Shown here in pieces: positions 2,310 to 20,435 of a DNA stretch of 20,543 nucleotides (positions within the stretch are counted from its first letter, which is position 1; each line of letters opens with the position of its first letter). This stretch comes from a virus (taxonomy: Duplodnaviria > Heunggongvirae > Uroviricota > Caudoviricetes). The stretch lies in IMG/VR virus record IMGVR_UViG_2734482572_000001; one strand, written 5' to 3'. The translations under genes were made by a program, and so were the position numbers. The notes under the pieces are model-generated. The model was not told the DNA's origin, did not search any database, and saw nothing but the letters and a program-made list of their open reading frames with translations.

Positions 2310-2950
2310 TTGTCGGTGTACCTCTCTCGTTTGCTCAGTTGTTCAGGAATATGGTGCAGCAGCTCGCCGTCACCACAGTAAATGGCGGCATGATTCGGCA
2401 CCGATGAACCAAAGCAGCACAGCAGCACATCGCCCGGCTGCGCCGCTGACAACGGCACCTGATACAGCCCTGTGGCCTCCAGATTATCAAGATAGAGATT
2501 CTGGCCGTTACGCCACCAGTCATCCTCACGATAAAAGTCCGGCATCTCAATCCCCGCCAGATGGTAAGCGTCCCGGAACAGCGTGTAACAGTCCGTCACC
2601 CCGTGCTCAAAGCGCCGCCCGGTGAGATGCGGCACACAGCGGAACTTATGAATCGCCCCCCGGCAGACCAGCCACCACGGCAAATCACTCTGCACCTGCA
2701 GCCGCCGGTCGGCCTCACTCAGCCAGGGCAGACCACCGGGATGACTGTGGACCAGCGCCACAATCTCACCCTGCATTTCTGCCTGCAGCCAGTCCTCCGG
2801 CGACATCCGGAAATAATCCTCCGGCTCACCGGAGATATTCACGCAGGGAAAATATCTTTCCCCCTCCGGCGTTCTCACCACGAAGCCGCACGACTCCGCT
2901 GGCGCACATCGCCGGGCGTGCGCCAGAATCGCTGATTCTGTCTCTGTCAT
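2207..2950 (-). CDS. K: Tail tip assembly protein K (JAMM/MPN HSHP motif plus NlpC/P60-like Cys/His C-terminal half)
   Basis: ORF matching lambda gpK; start chosen at ATG 2950 (MTETES...) just after the L stop at 2955-2957; alternative internal start at 2803 would give the older 199-aa annotation. 3' end overlaps I by 103 nt in another frame. Confidence 0.85.
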   Translation of the reverse strand: MTETESAILAHARRCAPAESCGFVVRTPEGERYFPCVNISGEPEDYFRMSPEDWLQAEMQGEIVALVHSHPGGLPWLSEADRRLQVQSDLPWWLVCRGAIHKFRCVPHLTGRRFEHGVTDCYTLFRDAYHLAGIEMPDFYREDDWWRNGQNLYLDNLEATGLYQVPLSAAQPGDVLLCCFGSSVPNHAAIYCGDGELLHHIPEQLSKRERYTDKWQRRTHSLWRHRAWHASAFTGIYNDLAAASIFV

Positions 2951-2954
2951 GGGA

Positions 2955-3653
2955 TTACTGCGAAAGTTTGTTAATGGAAAGGAAGCCGCCAAAGTTGCCG
3001 ACGTTATTGCGGAACTTACAGCCACTCAGGCATTTGCTGCATTTATCCTTCGTGATATCGGACGTCGGCTGGTCATATTCATCCGCGACCGCCGGACCGC
3101 TATAACCGCACTCATCACCGCGATAGGTCCAGGTGCAGGTGTTGGCCAGCATGATGCGCCCCGGAAAAACAGCACCATCCGTTTCCGTCGGCGTGGACAA
3201 CACAAAGGAGGCACTGACCGCGCTCAGTTCGCTGCACTGCTCGACGCGCCAGCGGCTGATCACCTCCTGCTCCGGATCGGCATCACTGTTTCCGTTGACG
3301 AAATTCACCGCATCCAGAAAACGGGCGTAAACCTTACGCCTGACCACCGTTCCGCCGACCAGACTCTGCAGATCTTCCACCATCCCGGTGACCATACCGT
3401 ACAGGTTAGAAACCGTCAGCGTGGGGCGCGTACTGGTGCCTTTGCCATTCAGTTCAAAACCGCTCCCCTGAATGGGATACGCCTGATACTGTCGCCCCTG
3501 CCAGGTGACCGGCTCACCTTTTTCGTTCTGCTCATTACAGAAAAAATAACGTTCTCCACCGACCTCTGTCAGATCGATTTCCCAGAGCACCACGCTGGCC
3601 GACTGCTCCGCACGGGTGCATTCATTCAGTGTTTCCTGTTGGATATCCTGCAT
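2955..3653 (-). CDS. L: Tail tip protein L
   Basis: 232-aa ORF equal in length to lambda gpL with matching sequence; ATG overlaps M stop (TGATG at 3651-3655). Confidence 0.93.
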   Translation of the reverse strand: MQDIQQETLNECTRAEQSASVVLWEIDLTEVGGERYFFCNEQNEKGEPVTWQGRQYQAYPIQGSGFELNGKGTSTRPTLTVSNLYGMVTGMVEDLQSLVGGTVVRRKVYARFLDAVNFVNGNSDADPEQEVISRWRVEQCSELSAVSASFVLSTPTETDGAVFPGRIMLANTCTWTYRGDECGYSGPAVADEYDQPTSDITKDKCSKCLSGCKFRNNVGNFGGFLSINKLSQ

Positions 3654-3982
3654 CAGTTCACCACCTGTTCAAACTCTGCGCTGAACTCAACACGCAGCAT
3701 ACTGACCCGCGACGACCATTTTGCGCAGGTCACCTTTATCTGCCGCCACTCATAAGGCGGCGTCCACAGAAAGGCTTTCCAGCCCCCGTGCTCAGCCAGA
3801 AACGACTCCAGCGCTGTGGCCTCCCAACGGGGAACAGAAAGCGTCACGCTGTACGTTTTCAGGTCAGCGTTCAGCCCGGCAGGCGCTCGCTGGGAATAGC
3901 CATCACCAAAGCGCACCTTTCTTACGGAAGGGGCCGAAGCCACATCCATACCGGGTTTCACTTTCCAGCGGAAGGTTTTCAT
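3653..3982 (-). CDS. M: Tail tip protein M
   Basis: 109-aa ORF matching lambda gpM (MKTFRWKVKPGMDVAS...). Confidence 0.93.
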   Translation of the reverse strand: MKTFRWKVKPGMDVASAPSVRKVRFGDGYSQRAPAGLNADLKTYSVTLSVPRWEATALESFLAEHGGWKAFLWTPPYEWRQIKVTCAKWSSRVSMLRVEFSAEFEQVVN

Positions 3983-6540
3983 CGTCCACCTCCGGAGAAC
4001 AGACCACCATCGCGCATCTGCCCGGTCACAACATCCATTGCCGCCTTACGGGCTACGTCATAAACAGCCTTCAGTGCCTGTGGCCCTATCTGACCGTTCG
4101 TGCCGTCGTTGTTAATCACCACATGGTTATTCTGCTCAAACGTCCCGGACGCCTGCGACCGGCTGTCTGCCATGCTGCCCGGTGTACCGACATAACCGCC
4201 GGTGGCATAGCCGCGCATCAGCCGGTAGAGATTCCCCACGCCAATCCGGCTGGTTGCCTCCTTCGTGAAGACAAACTCACCACGGTGAACAATCCCCGCT
4301 GGCTCATATTTGCCGCCGGTTCCCGTAAATCCCCCGGTCGCAAAATGGAATTTCGCCGCAGCGGCCTGAATGGCTGTACCACCTGACGCTGATGCGCCAC
4401 CACTGGCAGCACCGCCAATGGCGCTGCCGATACTCCCGACAATCCCCACCATTGCCTGCTTAAGCAGAATTTCTGTCATCATGGACAGCACGGAACGGGT
4501 GAAGCTGCGCCAGTTCTGTTCACTGCCGGTCAGCATCGCCGCCATATTCTGTGCAATACCATCAAAGGTCTGCGTGGCAGCACTTTTAACCTGCGACATA
4601 CTGTCCGTGGCGCTCTCTTCCCACTCACTCCAGCCGGACTTCAGGCCTGCCATCCAGCTCCCGCGAAGCTGGTCTTCAGCCGCCCAGGTCTTTTTCTGCT
4701 CTGACATGACGTTATTCAGCGCCAGCGGATTATCGCCATACTGTTCCTTCAGACGCTGTTCCGTGGCTTCCCGCGCTGCCTGCCGGTCAGTCAGCCCCCG
4801 GCTTTTCGCATCAATGGCGGCCCGTTTTGCCCGTTGCTGCTGTGCGAATTTATCCGCCTGCTGCGCCAGCGCATTCAGGTGCTCCTGATACGTGACCTTA
4901 TCGCCAAGTGCAGCCAGCTGGCGCTTGTACTCCAGCGTCTCGTCTTTATGCGCCAGCAGGGATTTCTCCTGTGCAGACAGCTGGCGACGTTGCGCCGCCT
5001 CCTCCAGTACCGCGAACTGATTCTCCGCCTTCCACAAATCCCGGCGCTGCTGGCTGATTTTCTCATTCGCTCCGGCATGCTTCTCCAGCGTCCGGAGTTC
5101 TGCCTGAAGCGTCAGCAGGGCAGCATGAGCACTGTCTTCCTGACGATCGCCCGCAGACACCTTCACGCCGGACTGCTTCGGCTTTTTCAGCGTAGCTTCA
5201 TAATCCTTTTTCGCTGCCGCCATCAGCGTGTTGTAATCTGCCTGCAGGATTTTCCCGTCTTTCAGTGCCTTATTCAGTTCTTCCTGACGGGCGGTATATT
5301 TCTCCAGCGGCGTTTGCAGGCGTTCGTAAGCCTTCTGCGCCTCTTCGGTATATTTCAGCCGTGACGCTTCGGTATCGCTCTGCTGCTGCGCATTTTTGTC
5401 CTGTTGACTCTGCTGCTCAGCCTTCTTTCGGGCGGCTTCAAGCGCAAGACGGGCCTTTTCACGATCATCCCAGTAACGCGCCCGCGCTTCATCGTTAACA
5501 AAATAATCATCCTTGCGCAGATTCCAGATGTCGTCTGCTTTCTTAAACGCAGCCTCTGCCTTAATCAGCATCTCCTGAGCGGTATCAGGACGACCAATAT
5601 CCAGCACCGCATCCCACATGGATTTGAATGCCCGTGCTGTCCTGTCTGCCCAGGTCTCCAGCGTGCCCATGTTCTCTTTCAGGCGGCGGGTCTGGTCATC
5701 AAACCCTTTCGTTGCGGCCTCGTTCGCCGCCTGCAATGCCCCGGCTTCATCGCCGGAACGCTGCAACTGAGCAACATACGCAATCTGCTCCGCCGTCACG
5801 TTATGGAACTGGCGTGCCATCGCCGTCAGCCCCGACGTCGGGTCTGTGGTCAGCTTCCCGAAGGCTTCAGCGACCTTGTCCACCTCCACGCCGGATGCAG
5901 AGGAGAAACGCGCCACACTCTGGCTGATGGACGCAATCTGAGCCTCACCGCTTACCCCCGCCTTAACCAGTGCGCTGAGTGACTCGCTGGTCTGGTTAAA
6001 CGTCAGCCCTGCCGCCTGCCCGGCTCTGGACAGGACCAGCATGCGATCTGCCGTCAGTCCCGCCTGATTGCCGGAAAGGACCAGCGTTTTGTTGAAATCG
6101 GACAGGGTTGAGTTGCCCTGATACCAGGCATACGCCAGCGCACCGGTCGCCACCGCCAGCGAGGTGGCCCCCACCATCGGCAGGGTGATCGCACCGGCAA
6201 GCCCCCTGAACATGGGGATCATCCCGCCGAAGGAGTCCTTAACCTGACCACCCTGTTGCAGCAGGATCAGCCACGGACTTTGCCCGCCTGCAAGCTGCGT
6301 GGCCACGTCGGTGAACTGTGCAGGCAGCATACGCATGGCGGCTTTATACTGCCCGACGGAAATCCCCGCTTTCTGTGCAGCCAGCGCCTGTCGGCTCAGC
6401 GACTGTTCAACGACTGCCGCTGTTTTTTTCGCATCACTTTCCGTACCGGAAAAATGACGCCTGACTCTGGCCATCTGCTCGTCAAATCTGGCCGCATCCA
6501 GACTCAAATCAACGACCAGATCGCCTACCGGTTCAGCCAT
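3979..6540 (-). CDS. H: Tail tape measure protein H
   Basis: 853-aa ORF, same length as lambda gpH; long alanine/glutamine-rich coiled-coil centre and glycine-rich segment typical of tape measure proteins. Confidence 0.95.
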   Translation of the reverse strand: MAEPVGDLVVDLSLDAARFDEQMARVRRHFSGTESDAKKTAAVVEQSLSRQALAAQKAGISVGQYKAAMRMLPAQFTDVATQLAGGQSPWLILLQQGGQVKDSFGGMIPMFRGLAGAITLPMVGATSLAVATGALAYAWYQGNSTLSDFNKTLVLSGNQAGLTADRMLVLSRAGQAAGLTFNQTSESLSALVKAGVSGEAQIASISQSVARFSSASGVEVDKVAEAFGKLTTDPTSGLTAMARQFHNVTAEQIAYVAQLQRSGDEAGALQAANEAATKGFDDQTRRLKENMGTLETWADRTARAFKSMWDAVLDIGRPDTAQEMLIKAEAAFKKADDIWNLRKDDYFVNDEARARYWDDREKARLALEAARKKAEQQSQQDKNAQQQSDTEASRLKYTEEAQKAYERLQTPLEKYTARQEELNKALKDGKILQADYNTLMAAAKKDYEATLKKPKQSGVKVSAGDRQEDSAHAALLTLQAELRTLEKHAGANEKISQQRRDLWKAENQFAVLEEAAQRRQLSAQEKSLLAHKDETLEYKRQLAALGDKVTYQEHLNALAQQADKFAQQQRAKRAAIDAKSRGLTDRQAAREATEQRLKEQYGDNPLALNNVMSEQKKTWAAEDQLRGSWMAGLKSGWSEWEESATDSMSQVKSAATQTFDGIAQNMAAMLTGSEQNWRSFTRSVLSMMTEILLKQAMVGIVGSIGSAIGGAASGGASASGGTAIQAAAAKFHFATGGFTGTGGKYEPAGIVHRGEFVFTKEATSRIGVGNLYRLMRGYATGGYVGTPGSMADSRSQASGTFEQNNHVVINNDGTNGQIGPQALKAVYDVARKAAMDVVTGQMRDGGLFSGGGR

Positions 6541-16342: not shown

Positions 16343-16368
<26 letters not shown>

Positions 16369-16888
16369 TCAGCAACCCCGGTATCAGTTCATCCAGCGCG
16401 GCTGCTTTGTTCATGGCTTTGATGATATCCCGTTTCAGGAAATCAATATGCCGGTTATCCAGCTCAGGAAAACGTCGCTGCACCGACAGAGGAATACCGT
16501 CGAGAATACTGGATATTTCCCTTGCTATACGCGACAGCACGAAAGTACAGAATGCGGTTTCCACCACTTCAGCCGATTCTTTGGCATTTTTCAGTTCCTG
16601 CGCCGTCGCCTGAGCACGAGTCAGGCGATGGCGCTCAAATTCAAGTGTTCCTGGGTGAAGATCTGCCTCGCTGGCCAGCCGCAGTTCTTCAACCTCCCGG
16701 CGCAGCTTTTCGTTCTCAATTTCAGCATCCCTTTCGGCATACCATTTTATGACGGCGGCAGAGTCATAAAGCACCTCATTACCCTTGCCACCGCCTCGCA
16801 GAACGGGCATTCCCTGTTCCTGCCAGTTCTGAATGGTACGGATACTCGCACCGAAAATATCAGCCAGCTGCTTTTTGTTGACTTCCAT
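16343..16888 (-). CDS. nu1: Terminase small subunit Nu1
   Basis: 181-aa ORF near-identical to lambda gpNu1 (MEVNKKQLADIFGASIRTIQNWQEQGMPVLRGGGKGNEVLYD...). Confidence 0.96.
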
Positions 16889-17110
16889 TGTTCATTCCAC
16901 GGACAAAAACAGAGAAAGGAAACGACAGAGGCCAAAAAGCCCGTTTTCAGCATCTGTCGTTTCCTTTCTTTTCAGGGGGTGTTTTAAATAAAAACATGAA
17001 GTTACGGCGAAGAAGAACGGAAACGCCTTAAACCGGAAAATTTTCATAAATAGCGAAAACCCGCGCGCCTTCCGCCCCGTAACAGGCCGGATCGCCGGAA
17101 AGGACCCGCA
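16889..17110 (-). other. cos site: cosB (about 16889-17065), cosN (about 17066-17077) and cosQ side (about 17078-17110)
   Basis: Reverse complement of 16990-17065 matches the lambda left end after cosN (CGCGGGTTTTCGCTATTTATGAAAATTTTCCGGTT...); reverse complement of 17078-17116 matches the lambda right end (CATCTTTGCGGGTCCTTTCCGGCGATCCGnnnnGTTACG). The 12-nt cohesive-end position reads GGGCGGAAGGCG versus lambda GGGCGGCGACCT. Boundaries are by alignment from memory. Confidence 0.75.
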
Positions 17111-17147
17111 AAGATGAGAATAATTATCACTTGCATTAATATCCGGC

Positions 17148-17319
17148 TTCTTCCACCATCGCACCGGACGGGCGACTATGAGGGACAAAACCGCGCACCA
17201 TAAACGCGGTAAAAACCCGGTGTGCATCGTTTTTGATTATTCCCGCACACTCGCGCAGAAGGAGTTCCCCGTCGGGCTACGGTCATGGTTAATGCGGGAA
17301 TACAGCGACGATACAGCGC
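17148..17319. repeat. Direct repeat copy A, about 172 bp, roughly 93 percent identical to copy B
   Basis: Hand alignment of 17148-17319 against 18933-19103 gives about 10 mismatches and one 1-nt indel; shared core cggtaaaaacccggtgtgcatcgtttttgattat...gttccccgtcgggctacggtcatggttaatgcgg. Confidence 0.85.
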
Positions 17320-17435
17320 ATGATGTGTCAGGCTTGAATACATTTATCCGTTAAAAGGGATATCAGTTAAGTTATCCCGTGTAGGGTATAAGCCATTATC
17401 AAAGCCACTCAGTAGCGAATGGCTTTTGTAATGGA

Positions 17436-17885
17436 CTATTTAATTAGTGATGCTGCGTATTCGATTAGATATAACTTAGGTGCCAACCAGATTTTTAACC
17501 ATGTCATATTGGTTACTACAGCAATAATAAAACTTACCCACAGAACAAAAACTGCTGCTAATGGTAAGATAAGAAAACTAATCTCACCGTTACTTTCCCA
17601 AATCATAGTCGGTTTGTATTTAGGCTTCCCTTCTTCCCATGACCATCCTTCATTATCGAACTTACCAATTTCAACTTTTTGGTACTGTTTCTTCATAAAC
17701 CAAATAACCAGCGGAATTGTTGAAATTGCTATTAATGTTTTAATCAGGCTATCAACCATATTCCATACCAGCAACTGATGAACAACATCCGGAATCTGTG
17801 CCTGACTGAATGCAATGGCGGAATCAATTCCATCGCTGGCCTTCTTCAATAAATCAACAAGAATTTTATTTGCTTCTTCTTGCAT
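17436..17885 (-). CDS. Hypothetical membrane protein, 149 aa, 2-3 predicted transmembrane helices; second gene of the cargo cassette
   Basis: ATG at 17885 with AGGA 8 nt upstream; hydrophobic stretches TLIAISTIPLVIWFM and ISFLILPLAAVFVLWVSFIIAVV; sampled lines are about 33 percent GC versus about 57 percent in the lambda genes; no family recognised. Confidence 0.6.
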   Translation of the reverse strand: MQEEANKILVDLLKKASDGIDSAIAFSQAQIPDVVHQLLVWNMVDSLIKTLIAISTIPLVIWFMKKQYQKVEIGKFDNEGWSWEEGKPKYKPTMIWESNGEISFLILPLAAVFVLWVSFIIAVVTNMTWLKIWLAPKLYLIEYAASLIK

Positions 17886-18009
17886 GTTTATATCCTGTAA
17901 GTTGTAAGCCTGTTCGAAAAAAAATAAACAACTACGAGAGACAGAAAAAATATCTCAGGCTCTCTTTCTATAAGCTTTTAGTTGAGGATGTTCTGCAAAA
18001 CAAAACTGG

Positions 18010-18870
18010 TTAGTTATGTAACTGCTTCCGGAATACAACAGCCGACGTGCTACAACGTAAAATTCGCTTGATTGTGGCAGTTGAGGAAACAGACTTGCAT
18101 TTCTCAACATCATCAATAATGACCACATCCGGTACAGGAATGACGCGGGTATGCAATGTTTTTGCACTAATAACATCACAGCCATTCAGTGGTCGAATAT
18201 CTGCATCTTCAGGCACTACCAGAAGCACACGTTTTTCCGGTGCAGAAAAGCCAGCAGCAAGAGTGCGTGACAATAAAGTCATTCCGCTGCATGGCTTCAT
18301 ACAAATTTCAGAAATATGATTCTTTTCGTCCAAATGATGCTGGACATCATTTTTATCATCACTCAACAACTCTGCTGTTAATACAATCCCTGCTGTCTCA
18401 GATTTCCAGGAAATGCTGATATCCTGATCATCTGCATCAACATCATATTCCATCGAGTAAGGACTAAAGCTACGTCCAACGAACGCATCATTTACCAGTA
18501 CACGCCCACCCTGTCTGACCTGAAAGTCAACGCGCCCTGAAAGCTGATTTGCTGTTACAAGCAATGCCTTTTTTCTTTTTGTTTTATTGCTCATTGCCAC
18601 CAACTGTTCAGCCATCTCTCTTGTCACACTACCAGAAACTCTTTCTTGAATTTTCACAGAAAATTTTCTGGATGTAGTAGCATCGACATTAAAAAATCTG
18701 GATGTCATCAGGCAGTTATTAACAATTGGCATCAGCTCACTTACGATTGTAAAAAATTCCCGGTAAAGCTCATTTTGCTTTTCAACACACAGCTTTCCAC
18801 AATCGTCCAGCTTACGCTCAAGAGCACTTAACCTTTCCATTATTGAATTAATTTTTTGCAACTCTTTCAT
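18010..18870 (-). CDS. Hypothetical soluble protein, 286 aa; first gene of the cargo cassette
   Basis: ATG at 18870 with AGGAGG 5 nt upstream; starts MKELQKINSIMERLSALERKLDD (helical, coiled-coil-like), two C-x3-C pairs (CGKLC, CMKPC), C-terminal VLLVVPEDADIRPLNG...VVIIDDVEK segment. The ORF-track start at 19131 adds 87 codons through repeat B and is not supported. No family recognised. Confidence 0.65.
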   Translation of the reverse strand: MKELQKINSIMERLSALERKLDDCGKLCVEKQNELYREFFTIVSELMPIVNNCLMTSRFFNVDATTSRKFSVKIQERVSGSVTREMAEQLVAMSNKTKRKKALLVTANQLSGRVDFQVRQGGRVLVNDAFVGRSFSPYSMEYDVDADDQDISISWKSETAGIVLTAELLSDDKNDVQHHLDEKNHISEICMKPCSGMTLLSRTLAAGFSAPEKRVLLVVPEDADIRPLNGCDVISAKTLHTRVIPVPDVVIIDDVEKCKSVSSTATIKRILRCSTSAVVFRKQLHN

Positions 18871-18893
18871 CAAAACCTCCTGACAAAGATACC

Positions 18894-18911
18894 GTGCGAC
18901 CACGGTCGCAC
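18894..18911. promoter_or_regulatory. 18-bp palindrome GTGCGACC-AC-GGTCGCAC, candidate operator 24-41 nt upstream of the 286-aa gene start
   Basis: Perfect 8-bp inverted arms with a 2-nt spacer between repeat B and the cassette RBS; a second copy lies at 19114-19131. Confidence 0.4.
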
Positions 18912-18932
18912 GCTCCTGAATACATGCCCTGT

Positions 18933-19103
18933 TTCTTCCACCCTCGCACAGGACTGGCGAGCATGAGGGACAAACCCGCGAATCATTAGCGCGGTAAAAA
19001 CCCGGTGTGCATCGTTTTTGATTATTTCCGCACACTCGCGCAGAGGAGTTCCCCGTCGGGCTACGGTCATGGTTAATGCGGAAATACGGCGACGATGCAG
19101 CGC
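18933..19103. repeat. Direct repeat copy B, about 171 bp, paired with copy A
   Basis: Same alignment as copy A; lies between the DUF4406-like gene and the cassette. Confidence 0.85.
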
Positions 19104-19113
19104 GGTATTTAAT

Positions 19114-19131
19114 GTGCGACCACGGTCGCAA
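19114..19131. promoter_or_regulatory. Second copy of the palindrome (GTGCGACCACGGTCGCAa), about 20 nt downstream of the DUF4406-like stop codon
   Basis: 7-bp perfect arms tgcgacc/ggtcgca; same motif as 18894-18911, placed on the opposite flank of repeat B. Confidence 0.4.
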
Positions 19132-19150
19132 ACGAGAAACAAAGAGATTT

Positions 19151-19462
19151 TTATGCTACAGAGGAACAAGCTGGCGGGTAATTCAGCGTAGTGAATACCG
19201 GCATCTCCATCTTGTATGCGTAATGATACTCAGCAGTTGCTCCAGCAGACGCTTTCCAGCCAGGAAGCATCAAAATAGCATCAGCACAACGAAGCATTGC
19301 AAAGCAAATATCCATGTATTCACGTTGTGTCAGACCATTAGGCAAAGTGGCTGGATTCAAGACAGAGTGACCATGTCGTGACAAACGATCTGCCTCTTTA
19401 TTAAAGGCGTCACGATTAAAGTTCTCATATCCCGTCATTGGCCCGGCAATATAAATTTTCAT
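19151..19462 (-). CDS. Small DUF4406-like protein (nucleoside 2-deoxyribosyltransferase-like fold), 103 aa
   Basis: ATG at 19462, TAA at 19151-19153; N-terminal MKIYIAGPMTG followed by LNPATL and a C-terminal acidic/aromatic segment, a pattern I recall for DUF4406 proteins; assignment is from recall, not a profile search. Confidence 0.55.
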   Translation of the reverse strand: MKIYIAGPMTGYENFNRDAFNKEADRLSRHGHSVLNPATLPNGLTQREYMDICFAMLRCADAILMLPGWKASAGATAEYHYAYKMEMPVFTTLNYPPACSSVA

Positions 19463-19503
19463 TCACTATCCAACAAATTGAGCTCGTTTTTGATACAGAG
19501 GTA

Positions 19504-19941
19504 TTAATTCAGGCATTGCGTCTTGATGTATTCCTGCAAGTAGTTAACCTGCGCAGTTATCCTGTCGATCCCACTTCGGAGACGGTAATAATTGAGTTCA
19601 GCATCTGCTGTAAGTCTTGGGCTTTCTCCATTGCCCATGCCGCTGGCTCCGGTCGTTGACTTTGCACAGGTGGCGGCGACTTGCAGGCGCTTACGCCCAG
19701 CAGAAACATCAGCACGGAGGCTTTCGATAGTCGCGTTAGCATCAGCAAGCTCCTTTGTATATCTGGCATCGAGTTCCGCTACGTCACGTTGACGCTTCTG
19801 CATATCAGCGATTGTGGATGTGGCTTTATCGCGCTGCTCTTTGTAGGCGATGGCGTTATCACGGTAATGATTAACAGCCCACGACAGGCAGACGATGATG
19901 CAAATAACCAGAGCGGAGATAATCGCGGTTACCCTGCTCAT
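19504..19941 (-). CDS. Rz: Spanin inner-membrane subunit Rz (i-spanin)
   Basis: ATG at 19941 overlaps the R stop (ATGA); N-terminal TM helix [23 protein letters not shown] then coiled-coil periplasmic domain; resembles phage 21/DLP12 Rz. The ORF-track start at 19953 is a GTG four codons upstream. Confidence 0.88.
19557..19742 (-). CDS. Rz1: Spanin outer-membrane lipoprotein subunit Rz1 (o-spanin), embedded in the +1 frame of Rz
   Basis: [20 protein letters not shown] lipoprotein signal with lipobox VSAC followed by proline-rich [13 protein letters not shown]; entirely inside Rz. Start could instead be the upstream ATG at 19769. Confidence 0.7.
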
Positions 19942-20435
19942 TGTTGACCCCACAAACAGACTTCACGCTCAATCTCACGACGAGTCATCAGGCCTTTCCA
20001 TTGCTTACCGCCAGCAGATATCCAGCGACGTAGCTGATCACATGCGCCTTTGATATCGCCCTGGTTTATTTTGCGAAGAAGCGTCGATGTTCTGAAATTA
20101 CCAGCACCCACGTTGTAAACGAACGAGTAAAGAGCGCCGCGCGTTGTTTCCGGTATATCGACTTTGATGTACGGGTTAATTTGTCTGGCGACAGTGGCAA
20201 GGTCTTTATTCAGGAGAGCTTTGCATTCTGCTTCGGTATACGTTTTACCAGGCATGATGTCTTTTCCGGTGTGTCCGTGACATACAGTCCATACACCAAT
20301 GATATCTTTGTATAGTATGTAGCTGACACCTTCCAGACCATCGTTACCACCTGGGCCAGTGATTAACACAGATGCTATAGCAACAGCCCCGCCACCAATA
20401 GCAACTGCAACAGCCTTGCGTAATGATGGCGACAT
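19938..20435 (-). CDS. R: SAR endolysin (lysozyme R of the phage 21 / DLP12 RrrD type), 165 aa
   Basis: N-terminal signal-anchor-release segment [23 protein letters not shown] followed by a lysozyme domain; near-identical from recall to R21/RrrD; GAGAGGTG RBS upstream of ATG 20435. Confidence 0.92.

Follow-up and report, generated by a model that had tools for sequence, protein, structure and literature searches.

Two low-GC genes between Rz and cos of a lambda-like late region: one system or separate cargo?

Introduction

Do two adjacent genes of foreign composition, lying between the lysis gene Rz and the cos site of a lambda-like genome, form one dedicated system, or are they separate pieces of cargo? 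The question is raised by a stretch of 20,543 nucleotides (nt) from a virus of the class Caudoviricetes (IMG/VR record IMGVR_UViG_2734482572_000001), below called the window, which covers the late part of a lambda-like genome in reverse orientation and carries a gene for a protein of 286 amino acids (aa), followed by one for a 149-aa protein. A preliminary description of this DNA, made from its letters alone, had likened the pair, a soluble sensor-like protein followed by a small membrane protein, to the lambda RexA/RexB module, and had named it the best candidate in the window for an undescribed prophage-encoded system. Both genes do lie where it placed them, co-oriented in the direction of the late operon:

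18010-18870, minus strand: 286-aa gene, PHROG 2571 (E 4e-162)
17436-17885, minus strand: 149-aa gene, PHROG 3054, the Sf6 gene 34 family (E 1.6e-58)

Unequal distribution of the two genes

On balance, the two are read here as unrelated accessory open reading frames (ORFs), each placed independently in the Rz-cos slot, and not as a dedicated two-component system. The cassette is cargo at a hotspot, and it consists of late-region accessory genes already catalogued as PHROGs: residues 1-286 of the first protein align with positions 1-291 of 291 of the phrog_2571 profile (E 4.1e-162), and residues 1-149 of the second with positions 1-137 of 137 of phrog_3054 (E 1.6e-58).

The two families differ grossly in size. 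A tblastn search found the 149-aa family in 177 phage records, whereas the 286-aa gene occurs in two of 50,697, in one of them truncated, so that the asymmetry is about a hundredfold in records; in protein clusters it is at least 1,582 against 15. A single-sequence search with the 149-aa protein gave 488 clusters across Enterobacteriaceae, and a profile of distant members at least 1,582, none of which has a name beyond hypothetical or 'Gene 34 protein'. The 177 records include Sf6 (gene 34, 43% identity), CUS-3, N4-like Salmonella phages, many Vibrio phages, and phi92 with related large myoviruses (130-150 kb); the distant members tested (from phi92, an N4-like phage, a Vibrio phage, and Proteus) all match phrog_3054. 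Both temperate and virulent phages carry the family, among them phages of Enterobacteriaceae, Vibrio, and Pseudomonas. The 15 clusters of the 286-aa protein are all from Escherichia and at least 71% identical, and when 1.84 billion representatives were scanned in full with HMMER, nothing was gained but fragments and two weak relatives that match in part, P0145 and P0143.

The 149-aa gene is nearly always found alone, and the 286-aa gene precedes it in the lineage of the window only. Solo homologues lie in the early operon transcribed from pL, after N, sieB, or ral, in Sf6, in Salmonella P22-like prophages, and in an E. coli prophage; others directly follow Rz (gap of at most 8 nt or overlap) in five genera, Buttiauxella, Dryocola, Proteus, and Providencia among them. 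In a Pantoea P2-like prophage a 56%-identical homologue stands between the endolysin and Rz/Rz1 genes, which is the lysA slot of P2. A Klebsiella homologue follows a KilA-N gene, that of an N4-like virulent phage is found near the RNA polymerase genes, and one in a Vibrio phage lies inside a structural operon, on the opposite strand. The Sf6 gene 34 protein is a true homologue, 43% identical over its full length (both proteins score E < 1e-50 against phrog_3054), and has the same two transmembrane (TM) segments and the same conserved N- and C-terminal motifs, but its gene stands alone in the pL operon after ral, with no 286-aa neighbour.

The neighbours were surveyed at 24 loci, with at most one genome per species, by Pfam matches in the three genes on each side. 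Upstream, they comprised six Rz-type genes (five Phage_lysis and one DUF2514), six lysins, five holins, and three N-peptides; downstream, Nu1, terminase, Kil, cIII, RecT, and one Acb2/Tad1. In phi92 (locus L045, positions 2477-4054, gp220-gp221) the homologue is immediately followed by the gene for an AAA/STAND-like ATPase and then by that for a CapR/T5orf172 nuclease-like protein; the ATPase was compared with the 286-aa protein as a possible equivalent and rejected, being unrelated to it.

The alleles of the two genes also vary independently, since beside 286-aa genes that are 94-100% identical the 149-aa allele is only 84-100% identical.

Anatomy and evolution of the 149-aa protein

The preliminary description had proposed two or three TM helices for the 149-aa protein. 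Hydropathy gives two (residues ~46-64 and ~106-124), and the helices of the AlphaFold2 model agree with them. The protein has the architecture of PHROG 3054, that is, a conserved N-terminal helix, two TM segments, and a variable middle made up of the loop and TM2. In the family at large the N-terminal helix is acidic and the first ~45 residues are nearly invariant, as is the C-terminal motif W-L-K-I-W-x-A-P-K-L-Y-L-x-E-Y-A, whereas the segment between TM1 and TM2 ranges from 12 to ~69 residues across distant members and can barely be aligned.

The same division is seen among close alleles, whose divergence is confined to positions 17500-17700 (codons ~61-128), the flanks being 97-100% identical. 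The ratio of nonsynonymous to synonymous polymorphism (pN/pS) is 0.54-0.66 in codons 61-128 versus 0.06-0.17 at the gene ends, and at least three types of middle segment are shuffled against different N-terminal types. At longer range the ratio of nonsynonymous to synonymous substitution rates (dN/dS) is 0.07-0.19, and the homologues are full length. PHROG 3054 is thus a family of more than 1,500 clusters with nearly invariant termini and a recombining core, the gene of which is carried by thousands of genomes.

Homology to the copies located in pL operons stops exactly at the start and stop codons of the 149-aa ORF, with no flanking homology. Homology as ORF-precise as this indicates that the ORF itself is the exchanged unit and that its expression signals are supplied by the operon that receives it.

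Composition and expression of the cassette

The foreign composition ascribed to the cassette is real, although the drop is smaller than the 33% versus 57% guanine-plus-cytosine (GC) first claimed for it: the 286-aa gene has 40.8% GC and the 149-aa gene 36.0%, both below the window as a whole (55%) and below Rz, Nu1, and terminase gene A (51-55%). GC at third codon positions (GC3) is 0.34-0.36 in both cassette genes and 0.52-0.63 in Rz, Nu1, and A. The rest of that characterisation, repeat-flanked cargo in the Rz-cos hotspot, also stands: the GC is 36-41%, repeats of ~190 nt flank the genes, and the content of the slot varies among relatives. Good ribosome-binding sites (RBSs) had likewise been noticed, and both genes have one, AGGAGG for the 286-aa gene and, for the 149-aa gene (ATG at 17885), AGGA with a 7-nt spacer. 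The signals around the genes are the following:

18893-18912, minus strand: terminator-like hairpin with an 8-bp stem and a 4-nt loop, then GTATCTTTGT (-15.1 kcal/mol, z -2.7)
18876-18881, minus strand: AGGAGG RBS of the 286-aa gene, 5-nt spacer to its ATG at 18870
17401-17426, minus strand: strong 10-bp hairpin directly after the stop codon of the 149-aa gene, without a clear U-tract (-22.7 kcal/mol, z -6.1)

The first hairpin is at the same time a near-palindrome, treated below with the repeats, and it is placed between the upstream repeat copy and the 286-aa gene, just before the RBS of the latter; the second may be a stabiliser or a weak terminator. A consensus scan found no sigma-70 promoter-like site upstream of either gene. 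The lack of a detectable promoter, together with a terminator-like hairpin ahead of the 286-aa gene, points to expression in the lytic cycle and not in the lysogen; most likely, both ORFs would be translated from the Q-antiterminated late transcript during lytic growth.

A moron, as defined by Hendrix and colleagues, is additional DNA between genes that are neighbours in related phages, deviant in composition and equipped with its own promoter and terminator. The cassette is such extra DNA (1,781 nt, judged by empty sites) and deviates in composition (36-41% GC versus 55%), but no promoter-like site was found by the scan, and the hairpins 3' of its genes are without clear U-tracts. It can be compared with the slot of lambda bor and N15 genes 58/59, which has the same position, holds unrelated cargo exchanged between otherwise collinear phages, and is likewise of lower GC. 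The bor gene is described in Owen et al. 2020 (PMC7067206) as lying on the opposite strand with its own promoter and as being expressed in lysogens. The cassette genes differ from it in running with the late operon and in having no detected promoter, and there is no sequence similarity between the two.

Possible roles of the 149-aa protein

The N- and C-termini of the 149-aa family are kept in phages that differ in lifestyle and whose holins and replication modules are unrelated, and its gene is nearly always solo, which suggests a protein that acts alone on a conserved host component. Such a protein would work by itself at the inner membrane in the course of lytic development, the conserved host component being its putative target. 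Probable lytic expression, joined to the occurrence of the family in virulent phages, argues for a function in the phage life cycle and against a defence that protects the lysogen.

T4 Imm, P22 SieA, and HK97 gp15 are small membrane proteins that act solo in exclusion; they come from temperate as well as virulent phages, and their genes are often found at cargo positions. By analogy with them, the 149-aa protein may modify the envelope of the infected cell or the route of entry into it, that is, serve in superinfection exclusion, a role that we prefer to the others considered below but propose tentatively and regard as possible but somewhat doubtful. Its shuffled middle segment would then tune specificity. 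No match to any of the three in sequence or fold was found in Pfam, in a PDB search with the profile of the 149-aa protein, or in a Foldseek comparison of its model with BFVD.

The alternative that survives best, though we judge it unlikely, is that the 149-aa protein belongs with R/Rz as a lysis accessory which would time lysis at the membrane, in the manner of P2 LysA (a non-essential membrane protein), an antiholin, or a releasin, and that the 286-aa gene is an unrelated insertion between them. It is favoured by the Rz, DUF2514, lysin, and holin matches upstream of the gene in the 24-locus survey, by five homologues that abut or overlap the stop codon of Rz, and by the Pantoea homologue in the lysA position. 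However, P2 LysA itself was rejected as a homologue (hhalign probability 2.9%), and it has four TM segments against two. The family is found equally in pL operons, in the early/middle region of N4-like phages, in phi92, and in structural operons of Vibrio phages, far from lysis genes, most of its members lying outside lysis cassettes. In the window, too, the DUF4406 and 286-aa genes separate the 149-aa gene from Rz. Conservation at 40-56% identity across phages with unrelated holin families speaks against a holin-specific partner, and the antiholin idea was down-weighted for this reason. Finally, the region after Rz is itself a classic hotspot for cargo, so that adjacency to lysis genes is weak evidence.

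Less probable still is a host-takeover or anti-defence factor directed at a membrane-associated host system. The neighbours of the gene in pL operons include anti-restriction and anti-RecBCD genes (ral, abc, gam), one locus has an Acb2/Tad1-like gene downstream, and the family is present in virulent phages and probably expressed with lytic genes. Against this, the protein has no homology to known anti-defence proteins, the association by context is loose, and such a role does not readily account for the variable middle segment.

One system or two genes

In the preliminary description the 286-aa protein was a cytoplasmic sensor that activates the 149-aa protein as a membrane effector, the two forming an abortive-infection or exclusion module like lambda RexA/RexB. 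The resemblance in layout is real, as a soluble protein is followed by a small membrane protein in a lambdoid element. The genes are adjacent and co-oriented, with a gap of 124 nt; a deletion met with repeatedly takes away all of the 149-aa gene along with the part of the 286-aa gene that codes for its C-terminal third; and the composition is foreign and the slot a known cargo hotspot. Yet the 149-aa family is overwhelmingly solo, also in virulent phages, and far more widely distributed than its neighbour, its alleles recombine independently of the 286-aa gene, and its homology limits in pL operons are those of a single ORF. Lambda RexB, moreover, has four TM segments and the 149-aa protein two, there is no sequence match to either Rex protein in Pfam or PADLOC, the pairing is limited to one young lineage, the consensus scan detected no promoter for expression in the lysogen, to which the position of the genes seems unsuited, and a functional Walker A motif is lacking in the 286-aa protein. 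We therefore consider such a module improbable, and with the failure of the pairing that motivated it the cassette becomes weak as a defence candidate.

That description had seen no similarity of either protein to RexAB or to any named family, and here it was right: no significant match was obtained in Pfam, PADLOC, NCBIfam, or PDB, the weak ones having E of 0.02 or more, and in Pfam and PADLOC this includes any Rex, Sie, or Abi family. Pfam-A gave no family at E <= 1 for either protein, and PADLOC only a chance-level match to DrmMII (E 0.023, 11.5 bits). A literature search returned nothing on either gene, their PHROGs, or Sf6 gp34.

Several points weigh against our reading of two independent genes and a solo membrane protein. 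No intact 286-aa gene is found without an adjacent 149-aa gene (~12 IMG/VR loci, 28 complete E. coli genomes, and 19 plasmids), and the former may depend on the latter, although the 286-aa family is young, so that linkage through shared descent alone could explain their co-occurrence. The exclusion mechanism draws on analogy and context, and the position next to Rz fits a role in lysis about equally well. The AlphaFold2 models are of low confidence, with predicted local distance difference test (pLDDT) scores of 46 and 64. The promoter scan was a crude consensus search, which a weak or non-sigma-70 promoter could escape. A simple, crude positive-inside count over the 149-aa family (211 versus 100 lysine plus arginine residues) favours an N-out/C-out topology with a cytoplasmic loop, in place of the default N-in/C-in.

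A combination of both ideas can be conceived, namely that the 149-aa family is a new and very widespread class of single-protein effectors (of exclusion or envelope control) with the specificity set by the middle segment, and that the 286-aa protein is a newly recruited, degenerate P-loop-like partner, the two making a new two-gene system; we think this very unlikely.

The 286-aa protein

Setting such a partnership aside, the 286-aa protein would be a young, Escherichia-restricted cytoplasmic protein built of three modules, with no functional tie to the 149-aa protein beyond shared descent. That its ORF is a real gene follows from dN/dS values of 0.27-0.47 in divergent pairs and from conserved length, as homologues remain full length (276-286 aa) even at 79% identity. 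In the closest pairs dN/dS is near 1, on very few substitutions. Hydropathy gives no TM segment, which is consistent with a cytoplasmic protein.

The first module is an N-terminal coiled-coil hairpin (residues ~1-56), the second a middle domain (~100-180) common to other late-region cargo proteins, and the third a C-terminal alpha/beta domain (~186-281) resembling RecA/P-loop folds, with a Walker-B-like VVIIDDVE; the assignment to the RecA-like domains, made on a low-confidence model, is tentative. The Walker A motif GxxxxGK[ST] is not present, as the loop reads K-P-C/R-S-G-M-T, with GMT for GKT; M197 and T198 do not vary among the homologues, and a lysine is lacking. Such a domain, devoid of the catalytic lysine, makes the 286-aa protein probably a non-catalytic binding protein, and its C-terminus is probably a degenerate NTPase-like domain, to judge by the motifs. 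Compared with the RecA-like domains of SF1/SF2 helicases, it is much shorter than RecA1, has G-M-T, and gives no significant profile match. Two C-x3-C pairs had been noted earlier in this protein; C24/C28 are conserved, but the second pair is not, C194 being replaced by Arg in every homologue, and a zinc site formed by the two pairs was thereby ruled out. The proposed structural comparison could be carried out only on poor models, and Foldseek against BFVD gave nothing below E 1e-3 for the 286-aa model; a PDB search with its profile returned chance-level matches only (P4 packaging NTPase and Wzc, E 0.3-1).

The partial relatives P0145 (181 aa; locus L006, positions 5826-6371) and P0143 (89 aa; L008, 185-454, and L009, 1857-2126) have residues ~100-160 in common with the 286-aa protein and occupy other slots of late operons, between Q and the holin gene and between lysis genes and HNH/terminase. 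P0145 is a mosaic of the middle domain and a C-terminal helical module from PHROGs 2091, 1085, and 36381, which suggests domain shuffling among late-region accessory proteins.

The 286-aa ORF is hardly likely to be a chimeric remnant in decay, without a function of its own, such as a fused helicase-like fragment, for although its very narrow distribution, its many truncated or fragmentary copies, the degenerate Walker A motif, and the near-neutral dN/dS of the closest pairs would fit decay, the persistence of full-length ORFs, the lower dN/dS of divergent pairs, a strong AGGAGG RBS, and the invariance of the VVIIDD and C-terminal motifs among its homologues do not.

Flanking repeats and exchange of the cassette

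The gene pair is flanked by direct repeats of ~190 nt (17132-17319 and 18917-19103), 86-95% identical, which are copies of a conserved non-coding element of ~245-260 nt. In many lambdoid phages the element is normally single and stands just upstream of cos. The repeats and the associated near-palindrome are placed as follows:

19114-19130, minus strand: second copy of the near-palindrome, at the junction of the DUF4406 gene and repeat copy A
18917-19103, minus strand: repeat copy A, the 3' ~190 nt of the element (partial)
18894-18910, minus strand: near-palindrome TGCGACC-GT-GGTCGCA, between repeat copy A and the 286-aa gene
17132-17375, minus strand: repeat copy B, the full-length element (~245-260 nt), cos-proximal

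Among the relatives, both filled and empty sites were found at the same locus. Three empty sites (L084, L107, and L135) have the order DUF4406, palindrome, one repeat, cos, Nu1, and in them DUF4406 and Nu1 stand 482 nt apart, versus 2,263 nt in the window. The difference of 1,781 nt is close to the repeat spacing of 1,784-1,785 nt, and the single repeats of L084 and L107 are A/B hybrids; both are the expected product of homologous recombination between the repeat copies. The cassette would thus be gained or lost through homologous recombination between flanking copies of the element, and the locus is a clean example of a cos-adjacent cargo swap by way of a conserved non-coding element, in which filled and empty sites differ by about one repeat spacing (1,781 versus 1,784-1,785 nt).

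A 2.7-kb query, which took in cos and some of Nu1, gave matches in 434 phage records, and an exact 23-mer of the element is present in 98 IMG/VR stretches. Several different 5' flanks of the element all join it at GCGCTG. The palindrome reported upstream of the 286-aa gene exists as a 17-nt near-palindrome with 7-bp arms, in two copies, and lies at module junctions, -60 and +160 nt from the 23-mer, or +60 in a truncated class; some phages have just repeat, palindrome, and cos, in that order. It recurs exactly at mosaic boundaries in dozens of phages (for example at loci L066, L080, L091, and L103) and is terminator-like in one copy only.

For the element itself, RNAalifold predicts an 11-bp stem, UAUUCCCGCAU/GUGCGGGAAUA, with a compensatory C-G to U-A change in six of 49 sequences. 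A hairpin ACCGCG-loop-CGCGG, with a variable loop and one compensatory variant, is seen by eye and is not predicted by RNAalifold; covariation is weak overall (-0.68). Rfam gave nothing meaningful in the region, the repeats included. The element could act as an RNA, as a DNA site connected with packaging, or simply as a boundary for recombination. In one IMG/VR variant (L099), a third ORF (197 aa, ~600 nt extra) lies between the 149-aa gene and the cos-proximal repeat, and the repeat spacing is 2,702 nt.

Replicon, occurrence and neighbouring features

The other features of the slot and its surroundings are:

19938-20435, minus strand: R
19504-19953, minus strand: Rz
19151-19462, minus strand: DUF4406 gene, a homologue of N15 gene 57, nucleoside 2-deoxyribosyltransferase-like, the upstream neighbour of the cassette
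17066-17077, minus strand: GGGCGGAAGGCG, which, judged against lambda cos, we take to be the probable cosN and the downstream limit of the variable slot
16343-16888, minus strand: Nu1, with terminase gene A next in order

Over the cassette region (17400-18900) the window matches, at 100% identity, the linear E. coli plasmid pCAVP367-48 (47.6 kb), which codes for a protelomerase, a RepA-type replication protein, and SopAB beside lambda-like late genes. This match and the gene content of the plasmid indicate that the replicon is an N15-like linear phage-plasmid. Positions 16850-19520 are also 98% identical to the isolated phage PhiR46_1 (PV340565). The full cassette is carried by 28 of 5,426 complete E. 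coli genomes, frequently on plasmids of ~46-47 kb, and by 19 PLSDB plasmids; its copies in E. coli CFSAN029787 and VL46 have an insertion of the IS5 family. The content of the slot varies, N15 having a Dcm methylase gene and gp59, and the lambdoid phage PhiR34_1 having bor.

The DUF4406 gene is present, 97-100% identical, at every locus with the 286-aa gene, and is found without it too. Its product (103 aa) comes straight after Rz in the window; the overlap of its N15 homologue (gene 57) with the Dcm methylase gene hints at a role in nucleotide or DNA modification. Between cos and the start of Nu1 (16913-16969) there is a 26-nt inverted repeat, 88% complementary and with a 5-nt spacer, which is the source of spurious microRNA matches in Rfam and presumably represents inverted Nu1-binding R sites, as in lambda cosB.

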